A stretch of DNA of 64,000 nucleotides from a virus (Duplodnaviria; Heunggongvirae; Uroviricota; Caudoviricetes), in the IMG/VR virus record IMGVR_UViG_3300035492_000070; one strand, given 5' to 3'. The position numbers and the translations under genes are program-made. Positions within the stretch are counted from its first letter, which is position 1, and each line of letters begins with the position of its first letter. The notes under the pieces were generated by a model. The model was given only the letters and a program-made list of their open reading frames with translations, was not told where the DNA came from and did not search any database. Shown here in pieces: positions 1,031-64,000 of this stretch.

Positions 1031-1707
1031 ACATAATACGTTTCAAGAATTTCAAATTTAGTAAATAATCAAAAATCTAAGAAACAGTGAATTTGTGATG
1101 GACGTTTTCTACGCCCCGAACGTCTTAAAATACAAAGGGGTTTTACGTACGACATTTGTGATAATGGATGTAAAAAATCACAAACTCTATCCGTAAGTTT
1201 AAATGATTCAAATTCACAAGATTTTTCAACGCCTCAGTAGACGTAAAACTCGAAGACTGGCGCCGCAGAGCCGAAAATACAAGCTACACATTGCGGATAA
1301 ACGACGGGCTATGGTGATAATATATGATGAAAGTAACAAACAACGTTGTCCACATTCAACGAAGTGATATAATGTGGTGTCAGGGGTTGGTAACCCAGGA
1401 AACAGGAAAGGATAACTTGTTTCTCAACACACGGTCGATAAATTGAAGAATCTGTTTGAAGTGATTCTATTTGATAAGAGTAAAATCTAATCTTATAGTT
1501 TAGGCTCAATACGGAGTTCGGAAAGTGATTTAAAAGTGTTTTAAAACGATGAAAAGTTGGCGAAGCCAGGCCTTTATGTTTTTAAAACAACTCTTTGTGT
1601 ATCACCCCCGTCTTATTGATAATTATGACTTCTTTTTCAAAATAATACTTGACTTCTATACAACCTTCCTTTATACTTACCATACTGTTTCTAAGACCTA
1701 TTTGGAT

Positions 1708-2181
1708 ATGATTATGAAGTTTGAAATTTGGACTGATGGTGGTTTTGTAAGACAACCTGCTTTAGGTGCCTGGGCTTTTATTATTTTAAGTCCTTCTAAT
1801 GATAGAATAGAACGATATGCTTTAGTTGATCATCATAAACAGACTTCACAAGTCGCAGAGATTATGGCTATACTCAAGTCATTTCAATGTATGTTACATG
1901 ATGTATGTAAAGGTGATGAAAAGTTGGCTAGTAAGTTATCATTAGATGTATATTCCGACTCTCAATATTGCGTAAATAGCATAACGAGTTGGATGTATAG
2001 TTGGCAACGTTCTGATTGGCAGGTTGATAAGCATAATTTAGATTTATGGAAACAGGTTTACGACCTGAAACACAAATTCAAATCAGTTAAGATGAATTGG
2101 GTTAAAGGTCATGCAGGCATCGACTTGAATGAACAGGTCGATAAATTGACCAATATCCCATTAAAGGCTTATCGAAAATGA
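1708..2181 (+). CDS. RNase HI-type ribonuclease H
   Basis: EIWTDGG, VAEIMAIL, YSDSQY, NWVKGHAG match E. coli RnhA catalytic motifs; the ORF-track start (1549) adds 53 aa that do not look like protein; ATG at 1708 is in frame just before the domain. Confidence 0.7.
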   Translation: MIMKFEIWTDGGFVRQPALGAWAFIILSPSNDRIERYALVDHHKQTSQVAEIMAILKSFQCMLHDVCKGDEKLASKLSLDVYSDSQYCVNSITSWMYSWQRSDWQVDKHNLDLWKQVYDLKHKFKSVKMNWVKGHAGIDLNEQVDKLTNIPLKAYRK

Positions 2182-2819
2182 GTACCCTAATTGAAAACAT
2201 TACTGATTTAGAAATTGACAATTTAGAATTTGAGTTAGAAGAAGTCGAAGAAGCAATTCTACCAAAACAGAAAACTCAATACGTCAACAACAAAGAACTT
2301 CAAGCTGAATTTGTTGTATACTATGCCAAGAAGCAGCAATGGAAAGCCGAAGGAAAAGAAGGTAACCCTCCTCTAAGCGATAAAATAGGTAAAGCTATTC
2401 TTGACATCGCCCACCGTAGAACCTACTCTAGACAATTCATAGGTTATACAAATGCTTGGAAAGAGGAAATGATTTGTGATGCTATTGAAGTTTGTGTTCG
2501 ATATGCTCATAACTACAACCCTGAAAAATATGACAATCCATTTGCGTATATCACTCAGCTTGTGACTAATGCTTTAATTCAACGTATTAAGAAAGAGAAA
2601 AAGGAAACTTATACTAAATTCAAAGCATTTGAACAAATGGGCGGATTCCAGGCTTATGTTGATGAGAATTTAGATGCTAACGACGTAGAGTTGGCAAATG
2701 AAGCCTCTATGATGTATGCTGGTTATATGGAATACATCGCAGATTATGAAACCAAACAGGAAGCACGCAAATCAAGTGTTGACAAAGAGGACGATGGTCT
2801 GTTAGAATTCTTAGAATAA
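2178..2819 (+). CDS. 55: late-transcription sigma factor gp55 homologue
   Basis: QYVNNKELQAEF...GYTNAWKEEMICDAIE...NPFAYITQLVTNALIQRIKKEKKE aligns with T4 gp55 (KYNYVNNKELL...GYTQSWKQEMIADGIE...[24 protein letters not shown]). Confidence 0.75.
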   Translation: MSTLIENITDLEIDNLEFELEEVEEAILPKQKTQYVNNKELQAEFVVYYAKKQQWKAEGKEGNPPLSDKIGKAILDIAHRRTYSRQFIGYTNAWKEEMICDAIEVCVRYAHNYNPEKYDNPFAYITQLVTNALIQRIKKEKKETYTKFKAFEQMGGFQAYVDENLDANDVELANEASMMYAGYMEYIADYETKQEARKSSVDKEDDGLLEFLE

Positions 2820-9212: not shown

Positions 9213-9943
9213 GGTTAGATGTTCATTCCGATATGCACTTAGAGCTTCAGGATTTCCCTGCATATTTCCTTTTTAATCAAGACTTTGATGTTTTGATTCT
9301 AGCAGGTGACATTGCAGATTATGAGAATTTACCTTGGGCACTAGAGCGTATGCGGGATTTCTGTCCTAACAAGCCAATTCTTTATGTACCTGGTAACCAT
9401 GACTATTATGGTAATGACATTGGTAATATTCAGTTCTATGAGCGAGTGTGTTCCGAATTTGATATTTTCTTAATGGAAAAGAATGAAACAACCATTAATG
9501 GTCAACATTTTGTTGGTTGTACATTATGGTCTAACCTAAGCTCTGTGAATGGGTTTTACGATCAATACGTAGGAAATCAAGTCAAGTCCCGCATTGCCGA
9601 TTTCTACCATATTAAGAACTTTACACTAGATTCAATTTTAGCAAAAGCTCGTGACCATTACCTGTTTTTACAAGAAAAGATTACACCCGAATCTGTCGTT
9701 ATTACACACTTCAGCCCTTTACTGTGTCTTGACAATGAAAGGTTTCCTACAAACGATCTTACGAATTATTTCTGTAACAACTACATGAATCTTTTTGATC
9801 TTAACCCTAAGGCATGGATCTACGGACATACGCACGGTAATAGAAAAGGTAAGTTTGGTAACACAGAAGTAATCACCAATCAACGTGGTTATTTTCGAGA
9901 GTGTGCTGGTGTGTATGACCCTAACTTCATTATAGAGATTTAA
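9209..9943 (+). CDS. metallophosphoesterase
   Basis: DMHLE, AGDIADYEN, GNHDYYG, GHTHG motifs. Confidence 0.6.
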   Translation: MRLDVHSDMHLELQDFPAYFLFNQDFDVLILAGDIADYENLPWALERMRDFCPNKPILYVPGNHDYYGNDIGNIQFYERVCSEFDIFLMEKNETTINGQHFVGCTLWSNLSSVNGFYDQYVGNQVKSRIADFYHIKNFTLDSILAKARDHYLFLQEKITPESVVITHFSPLLCLDNERFPTNDLTNYFCNNYMNLFDLNPKAWIYGHTHGNRKGKFGNTEVITNQRGYFRECAGVYDPNFIIEI

Positions 9944-26581: not shown

Positions 26582-27967
26582 ATGATTATGATTTCGATTG
26601 AAAGTTCAATCGTGAAAGCGTTGTTATATGATGAAGAATATGCAAGAACTGTTGTACCTCACCTTAAACCAGAATTCTTTGATGGGCATTATAAGGAAAT
26701 CTTTGTAACTTATAATGATATTTTCGAGAAGTATCACAAGATCCCTACGGTTGAAGCGTTAGTTATTGGATTAAAAGGCAAGAACGTCCCCGAAGAAACG
26801 TTTGAGTCCGCTATTCAAGAATTGAGTGAGTGTTACAAGTCAAAAGATGAATCAGTTGACACAAAATGGCTAGTCGATGAAACTGAGAAGTATTGTGTTG
26901 ATAAAGCACTGTTTAATGCTATATACCAGTCAATCTCGATATTGGAAGGTAATGATAAGAAATTAGACAAACATGCCATTCCAACCATATTGGATGAAGC
27001 ACTGTCCGTTAGCTTCGACACAACGGTAGGTTCTGACTATTTCGAGGATTTGGAAAAACGATTAGATTATTACACTAACCCTGACAGCAAGCTACCCTTC
27101 CCGTTAAATGCGTTGAACATATTATCAAACAATGGTTTACCTCCTAAAACATTGTCGGCTGTATTGGCCTTTACTAATACGGGTAAAAGTGCGTTGATGT
27201 GTTACTTGTCGGGCGAATACCTTAAAGCGGGTAAGAACGTTCTTTATATCACTCTCGAAATGTCAGAGGAAGCTGTGCAAGAACGGGTTGATGCTAACCT
27301 CATGGACATGAAAACCGATGAATTCAAAAACAAGAATTTGAATAAAGACTTGATTCGTTCTAAAATGGCCGAGCTAAGAAAACGCACAACGGGTAGATTC
27401 ATAGTTAAGGAATACCCTACCGGGGCGGGTCATGTTGGTCATTTCAGGCACCTATTAAGAGAACTACAACAAAAGAAAAAGTTCAAGCCTGATATTATAT
27501 TCGTTGACTACATCAATATATGCGCTAGTTCTAGATATAAGACTGGTACAGGTGTCAACTCATATACATTGGTTAAGTCCATTGCTGAAGAGTTACGAGG
27601 TTTAGCTGTAGAGCAAAATCTGCCTATCTTTACTGCTACACAGACAAACAGAGATGCAGCAAACAACCAAAGTCCTGATATGACAGCCACAAGTGAATGT
27701 TTGACGTTAGATACTGTCGTAATAACGAATAAAGGCAAGAAGCAAATCAAAGATGTAAATGTGGGTGATAAGTTACTAGGTAGCGATGGATTTGTTACCG
27801 TATCAATGGTACATCACCCCAAAACAAAAAGGGTTTACGAGATCAAAACAAAGAGCGGGAAAGTTATAAGATGCTCTGCCGATCACGTATTCCCAACTAA
27901 TAACGGCCGACTGTCAATTAAATCGGGACTGGTTCCCGGTATGATTTTGAATAGTATCGACCTATAA
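26582..27967 (+). CDS. 41: replicative DnaB-family helicase gp41, N-extein fused to split-intein N-half
   Basis: Walker A FTNTGKSALM, ITLEMS; helicase sequence stops at ...DMTATSE and runs straight into an intein N-half, then a TAA stop. Confidence 0.85.
   Translation: MIMISIESSIVKALLYDEEYARTVVPHLKPEFFDGHYKEIFVTYNDIFEKYHKIPTVEALVIGLKGKNVPEETFESAIQELSECYKSKDESVDTKWLVDETEKYCVDKALFNAIYQSISILEGNDKKLDKHAIPTILDEALSVSFDTTVGSDYFEDLEKRLDYYTNPDSKLPFPLNALNILSNNGLPPKTLSAVLAFTNTGKSALMCYLSGEYLKAGKNVLYITLEMSEEAVQERVDANLMDMKTDEFKNKNLNKDLIRSKMAELRKRTTGRFIVKEYPTGAGHVGHFRHLLRELQQKKKFKPDIIFVDYINICASSRYKTGTGVNSYTLVKSIAEELRGLAVEQNLPIFTATQTNRDAANNQSPDMTATSECLTLDTVVITNKGKKQIKDVNVGDKLLGSDGFVTVSMVHHPKTKRVYEIKTKSGKVIRCSADHVFPTNNGRLSIKSGLVPGMILNSIDL
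27698..27964 (+). mobile_element. split intein N-half (IntN, 89 aa)
   Basis: CLTLDTVVITNKG (block A Cys1 + DTxV), CSADHVF (block B TxxH-like); inserted at the DnaB ESG|S site. Confidence 0.75.
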
Positions 27968-27970
27968 AGA

Positions 27971-28035
27971 ATAGCCCATTTTATAAATAATCTTTAGTTG
28001 GTGGTAATCCTAAAGAGGTTTTAAGAATGGGCTAT
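27971..28035 (+). promoter_or_regulatory. hairpin pairing atagcccat with atgggctat (includes the endonuclease start codon); loop holds late promoter TATAAATA (27982-27989)
   Basis: seen in sequence; reverse-complement arms 27971-79 and 28027-35. Confidence 0.5.
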
Positions 28036-29190
28036 AATATTTCAAAACAAAAATCTAAATCTGATAGTGAGTTATATGAATATATCTCAACAAAGAAAAG
28101 ATGGAAAAAAGAATGGGGTGGTATAACACCAACCCAAGAGCAAATAAGAAAAATAGCAGAATGTTTAAGGAAACTTGAAGTTTTAGGCGAAGGGTCAATT
28201 ACTCGTTTGGCTAGATTGATACGTTACGGTAACGACAATGATATTGAGGTTTATTGGTACGATGAATGTCTAATAATGAAAGGCGAAAGAAAACGAGGTT
28301 ACGGGTCAGCTTCGTTAGAATGTTTTCAAAAAAGTTATGGTGATGAGGAAGGTAAACGAAGATACGAACAACACTGTAACGAGGTAATAAAGCCAAATGC
28401 AAGAACATCAAGCCCAAGATGTGTTGAGTATTATATAAAGAGGGGATTTACTGAGACACAAGCAGAACAAAAGGTTAAAGATCATAACGCCAAAGTTTCA
28501 AAAGTTAGATGGGATAAAGTTAAAGAGTCTGGCGTCAATCTTTCAGAATATGCAAAAAGCATAAACCCTTTGTCTAAGTCATTTCAAGGTTATGTTGGCA
28601 TGGATAAGGAGGAATCCGAGGCTATACGCAAACGGCATCTAGAAAAGTGTATTAGAGGAAAAGATTTTTACATTCGGAAGTATGGCCAGTCGGAAGGTGC
28701 TAAAAGGTTTGAAGATAGAATGCAACGCAGAAAAGAAACAATGCTTAAAAACGGTACAGGTACATTTAACGTTAAAAAAGGTTGTGCTTCTGGTTGGTCT
28801 TTAAAATTATTGCTTCCTATATGTGAATGGTTACATTCTTTGGGGTATTCTAAAAAAGATATTCAAATGGGTTTACCTGAATACAGAGGAGAAAGGTGGA
28901 TTAGACACGGTAAAAATGAATATTTTATGTACGACTTCTGTTTTGTTCCTGGTAACATTCTCATAGAATATCATGGTGTGAAATGGCACCCTAAACCCAA
29001 CGGTGAGTTTCTTGAAGGTAGTCCTTTAGGACTAGATGGAAAATTAGCTAGACAAAGGGACGAGGCTAAAGTAAAATTAGCAGAGTCGCATGGATATAAG
29101 ATTATTGAAATATGGTCAGACGAGGACTTAAATGAATCAATTGAACGATGTAAACAATTTATCAGAGAACATGGATTACCTAAAGTATAA
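28027..29190 (+). CDS. free-standing homing-endonuclease-like protein: tandem basic DNA-binding repeats + C-terminal Vsr-like (PD-(D/E)xK) nuclease domain
   Basis: C-terminus IEYHGVKWHPKP...RDEAKVKLAESHGYKIIEIWSDE resembles Vsr FxHGCFWHxH...D...L..GW.V..VWE; sits between the two helicase/intein halves; paralogue at 62794. Confidence 0.55.
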   Translation: MGYNISKQKSKSDSELYEYISTKKRWKKEWGGITPTQEQIRKIAECLRKLEVLGEGSITRLARLIRYGNDNDIEVYWYDECLIMKGERKRGYGSASLECFQKSYGDEEGKRRYEQHCNEVIKPNARTSSPRCVEYYIKRGFTETQAEQKVKDHNAKVSKVRWDKVKESGVNLSEYAKSINPLSKSFQGYVGMDKEESEAIRKRHLEKCIRGKDFYIRKYGQSEGAKRFEDRMQRRKETMLKNGTGTFNVKKGCASGWSLKLLLPICEWLHSLGYSKKDIQMGLPEYRGERWIRHGKNEYFMYDFCFVPGNILIEYHGVKWHPKPNGEFLEGSPLGLDGKLARQRDEAKVKLAESHGYKIIEIWSDEDLNESIERCKQFIREHGLPKV

Positions 29191-29749
29191 AACCGAAGAG
29201 GAATTGTATGCTTTAGCATATACTTATGCCGTAAAAATGTTTGATGTGAGGTCGGCTCTAGGTATAGAGCTATCTACCGTGGGTGAGTTAACAGATCTAT
29301 TATTTGAGATGTTCAAAGACAAAGCAAAACAAGACTTTAAAACTGACCAATTAATAGATTACAATGATGAGATTGTTAGTATTGTTGAGTTATCTGACGA
29401 ACAAACTGTTGATATTACTGTTTCTAAAGATAGTCTGTTCTATGCCAATAATATACTAACAAAAAATTCGATTGGCCTTCCCCAAAGTTTGGACTTCTTC
29501 ATTGCTCTTGTAACTAATGAAGAGTTAATGGAAATGGGCAGACAGATGATGATTCTACTAAAGACTCGTTTTGGTAATAAACAAAACGCTAAGAGTCAAC
29601 TTGTGGGTATAGATTTTGATAAGATGCGTTACTATGACATAGAGAGCGATACAAGCAGTCAAGTCGCCGCGGTTGTGGGTAAACGCACCCCTGATACCGT
29701 CAAGAAGCCTATGGCAAGTGGTATTCCCAGTGATATTAGCTGGGATTAA
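29132..29749 (+). CDS. 41: split-intein C-half fused to gp41 helicase C-extein; true start uncertain (29132, 29171, 29237 or 29309)
   Basis: ...IVSIVELSDEQTVDITVSKDSLFYANNILTKN|SIGLPQSLDFFIALV...LKTRFGNKQNAKSQLVGIDFDKM; intein blocks F/G then +1 Ser and DnaB C-terminal motif; same frame as the N-part. Confidence 0.7.
   Translation: MNQLNDVNNLSENMDYLKYKTEEELYALAYTYAVKMFDVRSALGIELSTVGELTDLLFEMFKDKAKQDFKTDQLIDYNDEIVSIVELSDEQTVDITVSKDSLFYANNILTKNSIGLPQSLDFFIALVTNEELMEMGRQMMILLKTRFGNKQNAKSQLVGIDFDKMRYYDIESDTSSQVAAVVGKRTPDTVKKPMASGIPSDISWD
29309..29467 (+). mobile_element. split intein C-half (IntC), ends KN before Ser+1 at 29468
   Basis: LFYANNILTKN|S mirrors canonical LFYANDILTHN|S; start approximate. 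Confidence 0.65.
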
Positions 29750-38025: not shown

Positions 38026-38033
38026 TATAAATA
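38026..38033 (+). promoter_or_regulatory. T4-type late promoter box TATAAATA
   Basis: ttttttataaataaaag about 35 nt upstream of the ORF at 38069. Confidence 0.45.
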
Positions 38034-60065: not shown

Positions 60066-60728
60066 ATGATTATCGCGAAAAATGATGTATTCAAAACAAA
60101 CGAATCTTTCAACCGTCGGCTTTTACAGGTATTGAAACCTCAGGCAGGAAACGGTCAAGGCGTGACTGACTGGTTGGTTGAGCCAATCAAAAAAGCACAC
60201 CAGTTAGGTTGGACCCTGGCACCTGAGGCATTAGCTCTATTAGGTAAATGTTTAGAAAATAACCCCGACCTAGGCTTAGAGTCGGTTTACTTTGAAATGA
60301 AAACTGCGCAGAACCAAGATCCAACCAAAGAAGAATCCAAAAACCCTCTAGATGGTTTGAAACGTTCTTTCGACGCATTCGCTGCTCGTAAATATGCCGT
60401 TAAATTTCAGAATGCGGCCAAACGTGGGATTGACTTCGACCTGTCGTTTACCGATATGAAGAAATTGTTGAAACAGAAGAAATGTTTCTACACTGGCGTA
60501 GATCTTGTATTCGGCGAAGATGAAAATGGTAACACTCAACCCAACCAATGGACACTTGACCGTGTGGATAACAATATTGGCTACACTAAACAGAATACCG
60601 TTGTGTGTTCGCATATTGCTAACCAATGGAAATGTAAAGCGATTGAAAGTCCAGAGATTAAACTACCTTTCGATCAAATCTTAGCAGTTGTAACCAAAAT
60701 GAATTCTTTAATCGGAGAAAAGAAATGA
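60066..60728 (+). CDS. HNH endonuclease
   Basis: CFYTGVDL...TLDRVDNNIGYTKQNTVVCSHIANQWK (HNH_3-like). Confidence 0.55.
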   Translation: MIIAKNDVFKTNESFNRRLLQVLKPQAGNGQGVTDWLVEPIKKAHQLGWTLAPEALALLGKCLENNPDLGLESVYFEMKTAQNQDPTKEESKNPLDGLKRSFDAFAARKYAVKFQNAAKRGIDFDLSFTDMKKLLKQKKCFYTGVDLVFGEDENGNTQPNQWTLDRVDNNIGYTKQNTVVCSHIANQWKCKAIESPEIKLPFDQILAVVTKMNSLIGEKK

Positions 60729-61221: not shown

Positions 61222-62730
61222 ATGACCGATTTAACAAAATACAAAAAACTCACCGAGTTAGAACATATCTTAGCACGACCAGGCATTTACATAGGCAACG
61301 TATCTAATACCACTATGCCTACCTGGGTTGTAGAAAACGGTAAAATGGTTGAACATGAAATTACATTCAACCCTGGTTTGTTAAAATTGTTCGACGAAAT
61401 TATTTCCAACTCAGTGGACGAACATATCCGTTCTGGAAAAGTCAAAAACATTTGGGTTGACCTGTTTCCAATGACGGGTGAAATTCGTATTCGAGACGAT
61501 GGTGGAATTCCAGTAGCAAAACATCCTGAATTTGGTACATACATTCCAGAAATGATTTTCGGCGAGTTGCGTACAGGTTCAAACTTTAATGATGATGACA
61601 GAACAACCGCTGGCGTAAACGGGTTAGGATCGAAATTGACATCCATCTTTTCAACCGAGTTTAAAGTTGAAACTGCCGATGGTAAAAATCGTTTTGTACA
61701 GAGTTTTCGTAACAATACACGAGATCGCGGTACGGCTGTGATACAGCCATCGAAAGACAATGGCACTACTATTACGTTCATTCCCGATTACAGTCGCTTA
61801 GATTGTGAATTAGACGAGCCTAACATTAAAAAGATTGAGCGTCGAGTGTATGACGTGGCTGGGTGCAATCCTGGCATCAACGTATTCTTGTATGGTAAAA
61901 AAATTGACATTAAGTCATTTAAAGACTACGTTGAATTGTTCACCGAAGAATATGTATTCGACGAAACCGATGATTACTCTATTGCGTTAAGTGCAAGAGA
62001 TGATTCTCAATTCAAGCACGTATCTTTTGTCAATGGTATTGATACCTACAACGGCGGAACTCATATTGACTATGTCATGTGGGGTATCGTCAATAAGCTA
62101 CGAGAACTGATTAAAAAGAAACATAAAATTGATGTAAAGCCTAATACCATACGTCAACAGATGTTCTTAATCATGAAATGTCGTGTTAATGCACCTGCGT
62201 TCAACTCACAAACCAAGGAATTCATGTGTTCTGAGGCTCGTGACTTTGGTACGTCATATACCCCTAATGACAAATTCATTAAGAAGTTGTTTGAATCTCC
62301 TGTCGTAGAAAAAGTATTGGATTGGGTTAATGCAGAAAAGCGTAAGGAAGAACTTGCCGAACTGCGTAAATTGAACAAACAAACCCAGAATAACAATTTC
62401 TTGAAACGCATTACCAAATTCGATGATGCCACTGGTAAAGACAGAAGCAAGTGTATTCTTGTATTGACTGAGGGTGATTCGGCAGCAACTACAATACTGT
62501 CGGCGCGTGACCCTGAAACGATTGGTGTGTTTCCGTTACGAGGTAAGTTCATTAACGTTCGTGACATTGAAGTTAAGAAGTTAGCCTCTAATGAAGAATT
62601 CCAAAACATCATGGCGATTATGGGATTGAAGATAGGTAAAAAGGTAGAACCCTTGCCGGATGGAAACGATGTGGTAGTCCTAATAGACGGTGTCGAATAT
62701 ATCATGAATGAGAACGACATACCAGTATAG
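61222..62730 (+). CDS. 39: DNA topoisomerase II large subunit gp39 (GyrB-like ATPase + first half of Toprim), ends at the T4 39/60 split site
   Basis: GHKL ATPase motifs (ELEHILARPGIYIG, DGGIPV, GLGSK), Toprim LTEGDSA; stops after ...MAIMGLKIGKK, before the expected IMTDADxDG motif. Confidence 0.8.
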   Translation: MTDLTKYKKLTELEHILARPGIYIGNVSNTTMPTWVVENGKMVEHEITFNPGLLKLFDEIISNSVDEHIRSGKVKNIWVDLFPMTGEIRIRDDGGIPVAKHPEFGTYIPEMIFGELRTGSNFNDDDRTTAGVNGLGSKLTSIFSTEFKVETADGKNRFVQSFRNNTRDRGTAVIQPSKDNGTTITFIPDYSRLDCELDEPNIKKIERRVYDVAGCNPGINVFLYGKKIDIKSFKDYVELFTEEYVFDETDDYSIALSARDDSQFKHVSFVNGIDTYNGGTHIDYVMWGIVNKLRELIKKKHKIDVKPNTIRQQMFLIMKCRVNAPAFNSQTKEFMCSEARDFGTSYTPNDKFIKKLFESPVVEKVLDWVNAEKRKEELAELRKLNKQTQNNNFLKRITKFDDATGKDRSKCILVLTEGDSAATTILSARDPETIGVFPLRGKFINVRDIEVKKLASNEEFQNIMAIMGLKIGKKVEPLPDGNDVVVLIDGVEYIMNENDIPV

Positions 62731-62752
62731 CCGTCTTAGTCCGAGTCTAGAA

Positions 62753-62790
62753 CGTCTCCTTTTATAAATAAATTTTTATAGAAGGAGACG
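62753..62790 (+). promoter_or_regulatory. hairpin cgtctcctt/aaggagacg burying the endonuclease SD; 20-nt loop holds late promoter TATAAATA (62763-62770)
   Basis: seen directly. Confidence 0.55.
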
Positions 62791-62793
62791 ATA

Positions 62794-63885
62794 ATGTTAT
62801 ATACAATTACAGTAGAAAATAAAACATTCACACACAAAAGTAAAAACCAGTTTGTTAGGTTACTGAATAAAGAGTTTGGATCGTTAGAAGCTCTTTATCG
62901 AAAGCATTTTGACGATGGTAGAGTATGTGCGTGGTCAGGTAAACCTATCAAGACAAACATAGTTTTTAAACAGGACGAAAGTGGTCAAATCGTTTTAATT
63001 AATGATTACAAACATCTAGCGTGCCGAGAGAGTGGGTGTGTATGTGTGACAATGAACCCTAGAAGTTATGAATGGTTAGTAATGGGTAGAGGTATGACCA
63101 AAGAAGAGGCGGAGATTTTTTCTCGGTCTATAGGAAAGAAGAGTCGATCTACATTAAACAAAAAAACTGAGGGTACCGTTAAACATAACCCTTATAGTAA
63201 AGAATATTATATGAGCAGGGGAATGACAGAAGAAGAAGCCCAAGCTAAAGTGAACGAGAGAAACAGAAGAAGAAAAGAATTCTGGCAAGCAAAAGGGTAC
63301 ACCGAAGAAAGAGCCAATAGAATGGCAAAATTTCATTCAGCAACAGGCACCTTTGAATTTCTAATGTACTTCATGGGGTATAGCGAAGAAGAGGCAAAGG
63401 AAGAGTTAAAAAGGCGTTCGGAAATATCATCGGCAAACGGTAAACATAACGAATTAGTTACAAATCGAAGTAGAAAGGGCAGCGTTGACGCGGATAATTT
63501 TTTCACTGAGTTATATACGGAGGTTTTTGAGCCTCTGGGTATATCTAAAGATGAGATATTCACAGAAGCCTTTGGCGGGAAAGAGTACTTTTTAAGGAAC
63601 CTTGACGGTATTGTATGGTACGATTTTTATATACCTTCATTAAAACTTATCATCGAGTATTGTGGCACTCATTGTCATGCTAAAGATCCCACCGACATGA
63701 ATTGGAAATGTTTATTCAGCGGCAGAACGGCCAAAGAATCTTACGATAAAGATCAAAGAAAAAAGAAATTGGCTAAAGAACAACTTGACGTCGGTCTTTA
63801 TTACTTATACTATACAGGCGACGATAAAGTTAAATTTATTAACGATTTAAAAATTAAAGTGGCAAAAGAATTGGAGAAATTTTAA
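62794..63885 (+). CDS. free-standing homing-endonuclease-like protein, paralogue of 28027..29190 (tandem G-MTEEEA repeats + Vsr-like C-terminal nuclease domain)
   Basis: LIIEYCGTHCHAKDP...KDQRKKKLAKEQLDVGLYYLYYTGDD; repeats YYMSRGMTEEEAQAK / VMGRGMTKEEAEIF / FMGYSEEEAKEEL. Confidence 0.55.
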   Translation: MLYTITVENKTFTHKSKNQFVRLLNKEFGSLEALYRKHFDDGRVCAWSGKPIKTNIVFKQDESGQIVLINDYKHLACRESGCVCVTMNPRSYEWLVMGRGMTKEEAEIFSRSIGKKSRSTLNKKTEGTVKHNPYSKEYYMSRGMTEEEAQAKVNERNRRRKEFWQAKGYTEERANRMAKFHSATGTFEFLMYFMGYSEEEAKEELKRRSEISSANGKHNELVTNRSRKGSVDADNFFTELYTEVFEPLGISKDEIFTEAFGGKEYFLRNLDGIVWYDFYIPSLKLIIEYCGTHCHAKDPTDMNWKCLFSGRTAKESYDKDQRKKKLAKEQLDVGLYYLYYTGDDKVKFINDLKIKVAKELEKF

Positions 63886-64000
63886 TGAAATACGAAATTC
63901 TAAGAGTTGCATCGGAAAAAGACTTAAAAACTCTTCCTCGGTATCAGAATGTCCGTCGGGCGCCAAATACTAGATTTTCACGTATTTTGTTAGCAACTGA
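63885..64000 (+). CDS. 60: topoisomerase II gp60-like fragment (Toprim second half), 3' end outside window
   Basis: MKYEILRVASEKDLKTLPRYQNVRRAPNTRFSRILLAT resembles T4 gp60 N-terminus (...KYKLQNNVRRSIKSS...VAIMTDAD); ATG overlaps the upstream stop (TAATG). Confidence 0.5.
   Translation, partial: MKYEILRVASEKDLKTLPRYQNVRRAPNTRFSRILLAT

Follow-up and report, generated by a model that had tools for sequence, protein, structure and literature searches.

To our knowledge, the ribosomal hop in gene 60 of phage T4 was for more than 30 years the lone example of programmed translational bypassing. Which features of the bypass matter can be learned mainly from its natural variants. In the T4 gene 39/mobA/gene 60 cassette (Huang 1988; Weiss 1990; Bonocora 2011, as cited in bioRxiv 10.1101/2022.08.31.505936), the gene for the topoisomerase II large subunit is broken inside its Toprim domain, in the order fragment 1, endonuclease, fragment 2; the cassette also carries tails at the break, a take-off stem-loop, a stop codon directly after the glycine take-off codon and a matched landing codon. 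Dozens of gene-60-type cassettes have been reported, including a metagenomic "clade 11" (MGS11 and MGS12) in which a VSR-family endonuclease replaces MobA, and the conserved tails, stem-loop, mini-Shine-Dalgarno (mini-SD) sequence and codon pairs of these cassettes have been described (Manning and Atkins, bioRxiv 10.1101/2022.08.31.505936). Here, a locus of this kind is presented from IMG/VR virus record IMGVR_UViG_3300035492_000070 (Caudoviricetes), of which a stretch of 64,000 nucleotides, hereafter the window, was analyzed. At the end of the window, three co-directional open reading frames (ORFs) encode a gp39-like fragment 1 (ORF1), a Vsr-like endonuclease and a gp60-like protein (ORF2). 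The locus is very probably a mobile homing-endonuclease cassette lodged in the Toprim-coding region, a Vsr version of the T4 gene 39/mobA/gene 60 element.

The host gene, the place of the break, the gene order, the tails (which are homologous), the stem-loop, and the placement of the stop and landing codons are all shared with T4. The two cassettes differ in the endonuclease, which is Vsr-like here and the HNH protein MobA in T4; in the take-off and landing codons (GGU/GGU versus GGA/GGA); in the stem-loop (13 bp with a UGAG loop versus 10 bp with UUCG); and in the host phage, which is related to Pseudomonas phage pf16 and does not, like T4, belong to the Tevenvirinae. Fragment 1 and the endonuclease ORF are also separate here, whereas they overlap in T4. 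By its endonuclease, the locus belongs to the published Vsr-type variant (clade 11) and not to the classical MobA form. MGS11 and MGS12 are organised in the same way, in that tail and leader enclose a Vsr-type endonuclease and a bypass is present, and they share the tail motif DG..(I/L)(V/M)NEND; the topoisomerase backbone here is closest to pf16, whereas MGS11 and MGS12 represent a different phage lineage. When the supplementary files of the preprint were searched for four strings taken from this locus (the N-termini of two proteins, 15 nt of gap sequence and the run accession), none was found. The kind of element is already described in that 2022 preprint, and the differences from the published cases are ones of degree only. 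The locus contributes a well-preserved variant, marked by GGU/GGU with UAG, by the UGAG loop on its longer stem, by a gap of 49 nt whose +1 frame is open, by divergence of the nascent-peptide signal with loss of a supposedly invariant Tyr, by a short fragment 1 tail, by the lack of overlap between fragment 1 and the endonuclease, by an intact Vsr-type endonuclease, and by a pf16-like phage lineage that the preprint does not list.

Comparison may also be made with three other systems. The fractured genes of Dassa et al. (2009, PMC2677866) are replication genes in two parts on one strand, between which a Vsr-like endonuclease gene lies after a short spacer; one intein-less case, an SbcD-like gene, has short extra tails at the break (PMC2677866). 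The split intein that defines fractured genes is absent here, and rescue is predicted to proceed by tails and translational bypass. I-Bth0305I (PDB 3r3p), the prototype of the EDxHD homing endonucleases, is encoded within a recA group I intron (Taylor et al. 2011, PMC3239194); it is 17% identical to the endonuclease described here, the N-terminal regions of the two are unrelated by sequence, and the gene at this locus is free-standing. In Aeromonas phage Aeh1, nrdA is split by mobE (summarised in bioRxiv 10.1101/2022.08.31.505936), which is likewise an essential gene divided by a free-standing endonuclease with no intron or intein, and there the reassembled enzyme requires added tails to be active. 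The Aeh1 case is unlike the present one in its host gene, its endonuclease family and its lack of translational bypass.

Position and origin of the break

ORF1 matched the Pfam families HATPase_c, DNA_gyraseB and Toprim, the last at profile positions 1-42 of 96 only, and its residues 2-488 are 65% identical to pf16 and 80% identical to L005, a relative with an intact gene. A tblastn search with the large subunit returned upwards of 2,000 large subunits of phage topoisomerase II, with that of pf16 (65%) at the top. A megablast search in 50,697 phage records gave no match to the region. In pf16, the large subunit is a single 617-aa ORF with the medium subunit directly after it, and six IMG/VR contigs (59-80% identity) have an uninterrupted gene of 612-620 aa together with an intact medium subunit. 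Because the gene is contiguous in pf16 and in these six relatives, the split is a derived insertion and not a chance stop codon; the relatives carry the intact gene, and not the same split lacking an endonuclease.

Alignment with the contiguous homologues, suggested in the initial annotation of this stretch, did define the break. Homology runs through ...MGLKIGKKV(EPL), is lost in PDGNDVVVLIDGVEYIMNENDIPV, and is back at TRFSRILLATDADPDG in ORF2, the L005 counterpart of which is LRFGKILVATDADPDG in a codon-level comparison. ORF1 had at first been taken to stop after ...GLKIGKK; this was wrong, as 28 further codons (VEPLPDGNDVVVLIDGVEYIMNENDIPV) precede the stop, and what ends at about residue 478 is the homology to intact topoisomerases. 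From the codon-level comparison with L005, the 5' edge of the cassette falls within ~62644..62655, the VEPL residues being ambiguous, and the ~24 residues that end fragment 1 and the 28 that start fragment 2 are foreign. The same annotation had placed the break inside Toprim at the T4 39/60 position, and both statements held: the Toprim profile match is partial, the comparison with L005 puts the break upstream of the D-x-D-x-D element, and the tails that flank it are homologous to those of T4.

Terminal extensions and the predicted bypass

The 24-aa tail of ORF1 aligns with the tails of T4-type cassettes and of MGS11 and MGS12 around the core DG...(I/L)(V/M)NEND; the alignment also included the tails of the two Vsr-type cassettes L014 and L016 described below. 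The homologous tail of T4 gp39 (..ELNGDTIIVNENDEV..) is longer by ~15 residues, and the fragment 1 tail of MobA elements is given as ~44 aa (Manning and Atkins, bioRxiv 10.1101/2022.08.31.505936). ORF2 starts with the ATG at 63885, overlapping the stop codon of the endonuclease as TAATG, and reads MKYEILRVASEKDLKTLPRYQNVRRAPNTRFSRILLAT to the window end; its resemblance to the N terminus of T4 gp60, pointed out earlier, is borne out by alignment of the 28-residue leader MKYEILRVASEKDLKTLPRYQNVRRAPN with T4, Thanatos-1, S16, L014, L016, MGS11 and MGS12 (identity 38% to T4, 58% to L016 and 45% to L014). In T4, the gp60 N terminus is a nascent-peptide bypass signal in which Y16, Q19, V22, R24, Y33 and T40 are implicated (Manning and Atkins, bioRxiv 10.1101/2022.08.31.505936). 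In ORF2, V22, R23, R24 and T40 are kept, Y33 is present as F, and Q19 is displaced by one position. In the T4 structure determined by cryo-EM, both tails form a pendant "assembly bracket" domain on Toprim (PMC11461880), and the tails here may serve as an assembly bracket in the same way.

The endonuclease family usually lies between split-intein halves (PMC2677866), which raises the reading that the tails are degenerate remnants of a split intein and that protein splicing joins the fragments, on the pattern of the helicase and gp52 genes of this phage. Read from the sequence, the tail segment ...VVVLIDG... is loosely like intein block A, and the leader ends in ...APN/T. No Hint or intein match was found in ORF1, however, whereas the helicase and gp52 fragments do match; the tails total ~52 residues, far below the size of a Hint domain; the tail begins without Cys or Ser; and the homologous T4 tails do not splice but form the pendant domain. 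Protein splicing at this break is scarcely credible.

The remainder of ORF2 was read on an 18.6-kb Logan contig, L003, which was found by exact-protein look-up of the endonuclease and agrees at every base with the final 9,824 nt of the window (subtracting 54176 from a window coordinate gives the L003 coordinate). There, ORF2 comprises 44 codons, MKYEIL...TRFSRILLATDADPDG, in which the leader is followed by a recoded copy of the deleted Toprim residues (homR, continuing DADPDG) with a D-x-D-G end, and closes with ...GAT CCA GAT GGT TAG. The GGU UAG is followed by 46 nt and a second GGU, after which the +1 frame reads SHISGLIFNMINEFWPELF...; homology to topoisomerase resumes at GGT TCA CAT, with GSHISGLIFNMINEFWPELF aligned to GQHIFGLIINMINEFWPELI in the intact relatives. 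When the gap is removed, a 161-aa protein results (T4 gp60 has 160 aa) which matches TOPRIM_C (E 1.5e-18), so the downstream ORF, on the fuller sequence from L003, is a topoisomerase fragment and not an unrelated gene. The initial annotation was essentially correct though incomplete, since the predicted gene-60-type bypass rescue and the tails lay unseen.

The 49-nt gap is identical to the 50-nt gap of T4 gene 60 at 39 of 50 positions (78%); the flanking coding DNA is 49-56% identical to T4 (84/149 for the leader, 62/127 for the 120 nt 3' of the landing codon). Elsewhere, gap identity is 44/53 to Thanatos-1, 34/49 to MGS11 and 32/50 to MGS12, and gap length was 43-52 nt in the cassettes measured here, against the 20-50 nt expected for gene-60-type cassettes. 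The take-off stem-loop folds with -19.7 kcal/mol (z -5.2). Across six cassettes (this locus, T4, Thanatos-1, S16, L014 and MGS12), 93.6% of stem cells are paired, against at most 42% in control alignments that were slid out of register, and five stem pairs are changed on both sides, one of these being an A-U to U-A exchange alongside the change from GGA to GGU. A mini-SD, AAGGAAUAUC-GGU, precedes the landing codon (AGG 6 nt or GGA 5 nt 5' of it, where gene-60-type cassettes are expected to have it at 5-7 nt) in a pre-landing stretch of 75% A+U. Separate initiation of a third piece was considered and dropped, there being no in-frame ATG, GTG or TTG after the mini-SD.

Two other accounts of this region were weighed. 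A gap length of 3n+1 and a +1 frame that is open across the gap would also suit a +1 ribosomal frameshift at GGU-UAG in place of a hop, yielding a full-length protein in which 16 extra residues (SLRANYLNTSKLRNIG) follow DADPDG. This is very unlikely, because GGU-U is no slippery +1 site, as the tRNA-Gly must re-pair on GUU; the insertion would disrupt the conserved DxDxDG-xHI element; the homologous T4 gap, read by hand from the T4 sequence, has stops in all three frames; an open stretch of 16 codons arises by chance about half the time; and the matched GGU codons, stem-loop and mini-SD are hallmarks of hopping. Gene decay is also improbable. Under decay, the insertion would have inactivated the large subunit and left little useful downstream fragment, with the phage relying on host gyrase or topoisomerase IV; the stop after 44 codons of ORF2, the frame change and the loss of some nascent-peptide residues that are important in T4 speak for it. 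Decay does not sit well with three intact ORFs, with 118 open post-landing codons that are conserved with intact relatives, with retention of all the T4 bypass RNA features through compensatory changes, or with maintenance of the gp52-like partner, itself through a split intein. Rescue by a gene-60-type hop is the reading preferred here.

Rfam had no family covering the bypass region, two gap patterns gave no match in IMG/VR, and blastn with 11-mer words recovered Thanatos-1 and S16 and missed T4, with which the longest shared word is 9 nt. The sole result of a metagenome scan for the gap was a T4-type contig with intact MobA (L013, Ga0079226_10034289), in which a full-length 272-aa MobA ORF occupies 1380..2198 and the gap matches that of T4 through position 2450, where the sequence that was read ends. 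The mobA annotation of the T4 reference record covers just a short, defective fragment. Two more Vsr-type bypass cassettes were observed in Logan, L014 (700..2260) and L016 (1..1546), with SRR32932768 and ERR12320415 listed for them, respectively. In L014, take-off is at GGU-UGA, the loop is UUGC and landing is on GGU; in L016, the corresponding elements are GGA-UAG, CC-UUCG-GG and GGA.

Table 1. Features of the divided large-subunit locus, in window coordinates or, where marked, in coordinates of Logan contig L003
Feature	Location	Strand	Remarks
gp39-like ORF1	61222..62730	+	502 aa; topoisomerase II large subunit N-terminal fragment
ORF1 host-derived part, residues 1-478	61222..62655	+	GHKL ATPase, transducer, Toprim start up to ...GLKIGKKVEPL
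C-terminal extension of ORF1, PDGNDVVVLIDGVEYIMNENDIPV, with stop codon	62656..62730	+	24 aa; absent from intact relatives
16-bp hairpin upstream of endonuclease gene	62753..62790	+	fold of 75-nt stretch: -22.2 kcal/mol, z -4.3
Vsr-like (EDxHD-type) homing endonuclease gene, intact	62794..63885	+	363 aa
Endonuclease N-terminal beta/Cys-rich region	62794..63060	+	
Endonuclease four helical ..EYW..RGMTEEEA repeats	63061..63408	+	
Endonuclease C-terminal nuclease domain	~63475..63882	+	
Endonuclease D277	63622..63624	+	
Endonuclease E288	63655..63657	+	
Endonuclease H295	63676..63678	+	
Endonuclease D320	63751..63753	+	
N-terminal extension of ORF2, residues 1-28, MKYEILRVASEKDLKTLPRYQNVRRAPN	63885..63968	+	cassette-encoded unique leader; from translation and alignment
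Start of recoded Toprim replacement (homR, TRFSRILLAT...)	63969..64000	+	runs past window end
Take-off GGU	L003 9838-9840 (window-equivalent 64014-64016)	+	UAG next; 14 nt past window
Take-off stem-loop, 13 bp	L003 9833-9862	+	from fold
Gap, 49 nt	L003 9841-9889 (window-equivalent 64017..64065)	+	ends in landing GGU 9887-9889
ORF2 after landing	up to L003 10243	+	118 open codons conserved with intact relatives

The Vsr-like endonuclease and its upstream hairpin

The 363-aa ORF, correctly placed after the gp39-like ORF from the start, contains four visible copies of the repeat motif ...(E/K)(Y/F)W..(R/K)G(M/Y)(T/S)EEEA, and its C-terminal nuclease domain has the Vsr/I-Bth0305I fold (Table 1). 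Comparison with known structures gave scores of 8.7 for 3hrl_A (a putative endonuclease-like protein), 8.4 for 1cw0_A (E. coli Vsr), 8.2 for 3r3p_B (I-Bth0305I) and 7.6 for 4par_B (AbaSI); comparison with structures by sequence alone or by Foldseek was weak. In an alignment of 37 family members, D277, E288, G291, H295 and K323 are invariant and E264 and D320 nearly so, and the D-to-H spacing is 18 residues versus 17 in I-Bth0305I, with assignment of the residues to those of Vsr made by eye. An exhaustive HMMER search yielded 374 relatives at E<=1e-3, while a word-indexed protein search found nothing; there was no Pfam match, and PHROGs gave one unnamed family, phrog_22677. These findings agree with membership in the family of Vsr-like (EDxHD) homing endonucleases (Dassa 2009; Taylor 2011).

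The endonuclease had been called a paralogue, of the same architecture, of the protein encoded at 28027..29190 in the window, which splits the helicase gene. The shared family and architecture stand, as both proteins match phrog_22677 and have the repeat-plus-nuclease plan, but the relationship is only distant (23% identity over 268 residues, E 9e-6). Closer to it are the endonucleases linked to topoisomerase genes (28-40%), namely MGS11_VSR (32%, E 3e-36) and MGS12_VSR (28%, E 3e-21) of the published Vsr-type bypass cassettes; P0002 (39%) and P0004 (40%), which lie in L014 and L016, each with tail, endonuclease, leader and bypass; and P0003 (39%). From these identities, the topoisomerase endonuclease is no recent copy of the helicase-splitting gene. 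A paralogue in the strict sense, that is, a recent intragenomic copy, is extremely unlikely: it would account for the common family and architecture and for the similar motif and hairpin arrangement upstream of both genes, but not for an identity of 23% set against 39-40% to proteins of the same cassette in other samples, nor for tails and a gap that arrived as parts of the cassette and have their homologues in T4. P0003 was observed in L015 (47..2946), where it sits directly 3' of an intact large-subunit gene of 599 aa and outside it; by this placement, the endonuclease lineage also occurs as intergenic, free-standing genes beside topoisomerase genes.

The hairpin upstream of the endonuclease gene combines two signals. 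Its 5' arm (62753..62768) bears most of TATAAATA (62763..62770), which is the T4 late-promoter consensus, and its 3' arm (62775..62790) includes the Shine-Dalgarno sequence AAGGAG (62782..62787). L014 has the same hairpin structure built from different stem bases. The helicase endonuclease is preceded by TTTTATAAATAA at 27982..27989 and by a hairpin at 27971..28036 (-25.1 kcal/mol, z -3.8) that pairs sequence 5' of TTTTATAAATAA with the start codon, following the same logic. A third motif, TTTTTTATAAATAA, was observed at 38026, also upstream of an ORF. The control of I-TevI type in T4 is a model for endonuclease translation limited to late transcripts. Seen in this light, the hairpin would block translation of the endonuclease on read-through transcripts and permit it on transcripts from the late-type promoter.

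Proposed mechanism and other divided genes of the phage

The cassette measures ~1.4 kb, from ~62650 to window-equivalent 64065, and replaces a short stretch of the host gene. It brings the 24-aa tail, the endonuclease with its motif and hairpin, the 28-aa leader with the recoded Toprim segment, and the 49-nt gap. During co-infection, the endonuclease would cut intact alleles and repair would copy the cassette in, while the gap and the recoded segment would break up the target site in the carrier phage and confer self-immunity. Translation of the endonuclease would come late, on transcripts in which the 5' arm of the hairpin is missing. A ribosome on ORF2 would reach GGU-UAG and, assisted by the nascent leader peptide and the take-off stem-loop, its peptidyl-tRNA(Gly) would leave the GGU, skip 46 nt and re-pair at the second GGU past the mini-SD. 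The predicted hop product is a gp60-like protein of 161 aa with the tryptic junction peptide ILLATDADPDGSHISGLIFNMINEFWPELFTIGVMCK. The two tails would then form a small extra domain that holds the fragments together, giving an active enzyme with the gp52-like subunit. Strong homology and covariation back this proposed mechanism.

Several points weigh against it. The column of T4 Tyr16, which is invariant according to the preprint, is Leu in ORF2, L014 and L016, and the ORF2 leader has a 3-residue deletion between RR and the Y/F position, so that the nascent-peptide signal is only partly conserved. The gap has 49 nt versus 50 nt in T4, with the +1 frame open throughout, and the bypass element lies outside the window and comes from a single Logan contig. 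TATAAATA is not enriched across the window (5 found, 8 expected), and late-promoter use in this phage lineage is for this reason only putative. The predictions of a bypass, of the specificity of cleavage, of self-immunity and of assembly of the two fragments all derive from homology to T4.

A broader reading, which is offered tentatively and may well be mistaken, is that the tails and bypass form an endonuclease-independent "safe landing and immunity" module which has been captured repeatedly by HNH, GIY-YIG and Vsr nucleases. The gap is nearest to MobA-type gaps (Thanatos-1 and T4), but the endonuclease is of the Vsr lineage, which would fit a nuclease swap on an old bypass scaffold. On this reading, the 49-nt gap would shield the carrier from a Vsr-type enzyme in the way that it does from MobA. 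The locus allows a direct test of gap immunity against a Vsr-type nuclease.

The statement that two replication genes in the window are fragmented by one endonuclease family agrees with the present data, the helicase apparently carrying intein halves and the topoisomerase fragments having no intein match. The DnaB/gp41-type helicase gene (window 26582..29749) appears fractured. Its N fragment ends with weak Hint and intein matches and is followed by the 387-aa Vsr-like endonuclease at 28027..29190; the next helicase ORF, with ...LFYANNILTKN/S, has the look of an intein C-half by eye and no Pfam match. The gp52-like medium subunit gene, intact in L005, is broken as well, at L003 10523..13379 (window-equivalent ~64699..67555). 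The N fragment of 158 aa ends in an intein N-half (Intein_splicing E 4.6e-11), the middle ORF of 346 aa has a weak GIY-YIG match (E 0.001, below the Pfam cut-off), and the last ORF of 422 aa begins with a 42-aa intein C-half (...IVHN/C). The gp52 locus and, it appears, the helicase locus are true fractured genes. With both the large subunit and gp52 split, the topoisomerase would be encoded in four pieces, and given the split inteins of the helicase and gp52 genes and the gap in ORF2, making topoisomerase II would call at once for a hop of the ribosome, for protein trans-splicing and for non-covalent assembly. The phage is a compact example of the tolerance of selfish DNA within essential genes. 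Two genes upstream of the topoisomerase, a 220-aa ORF (60066..60728) with no Pfam match ends in ...WTLDRVDNNIGYTKQNTVVCSHIANQWK, which is HNH-like by eye, and may be another free-standing endonuclease.

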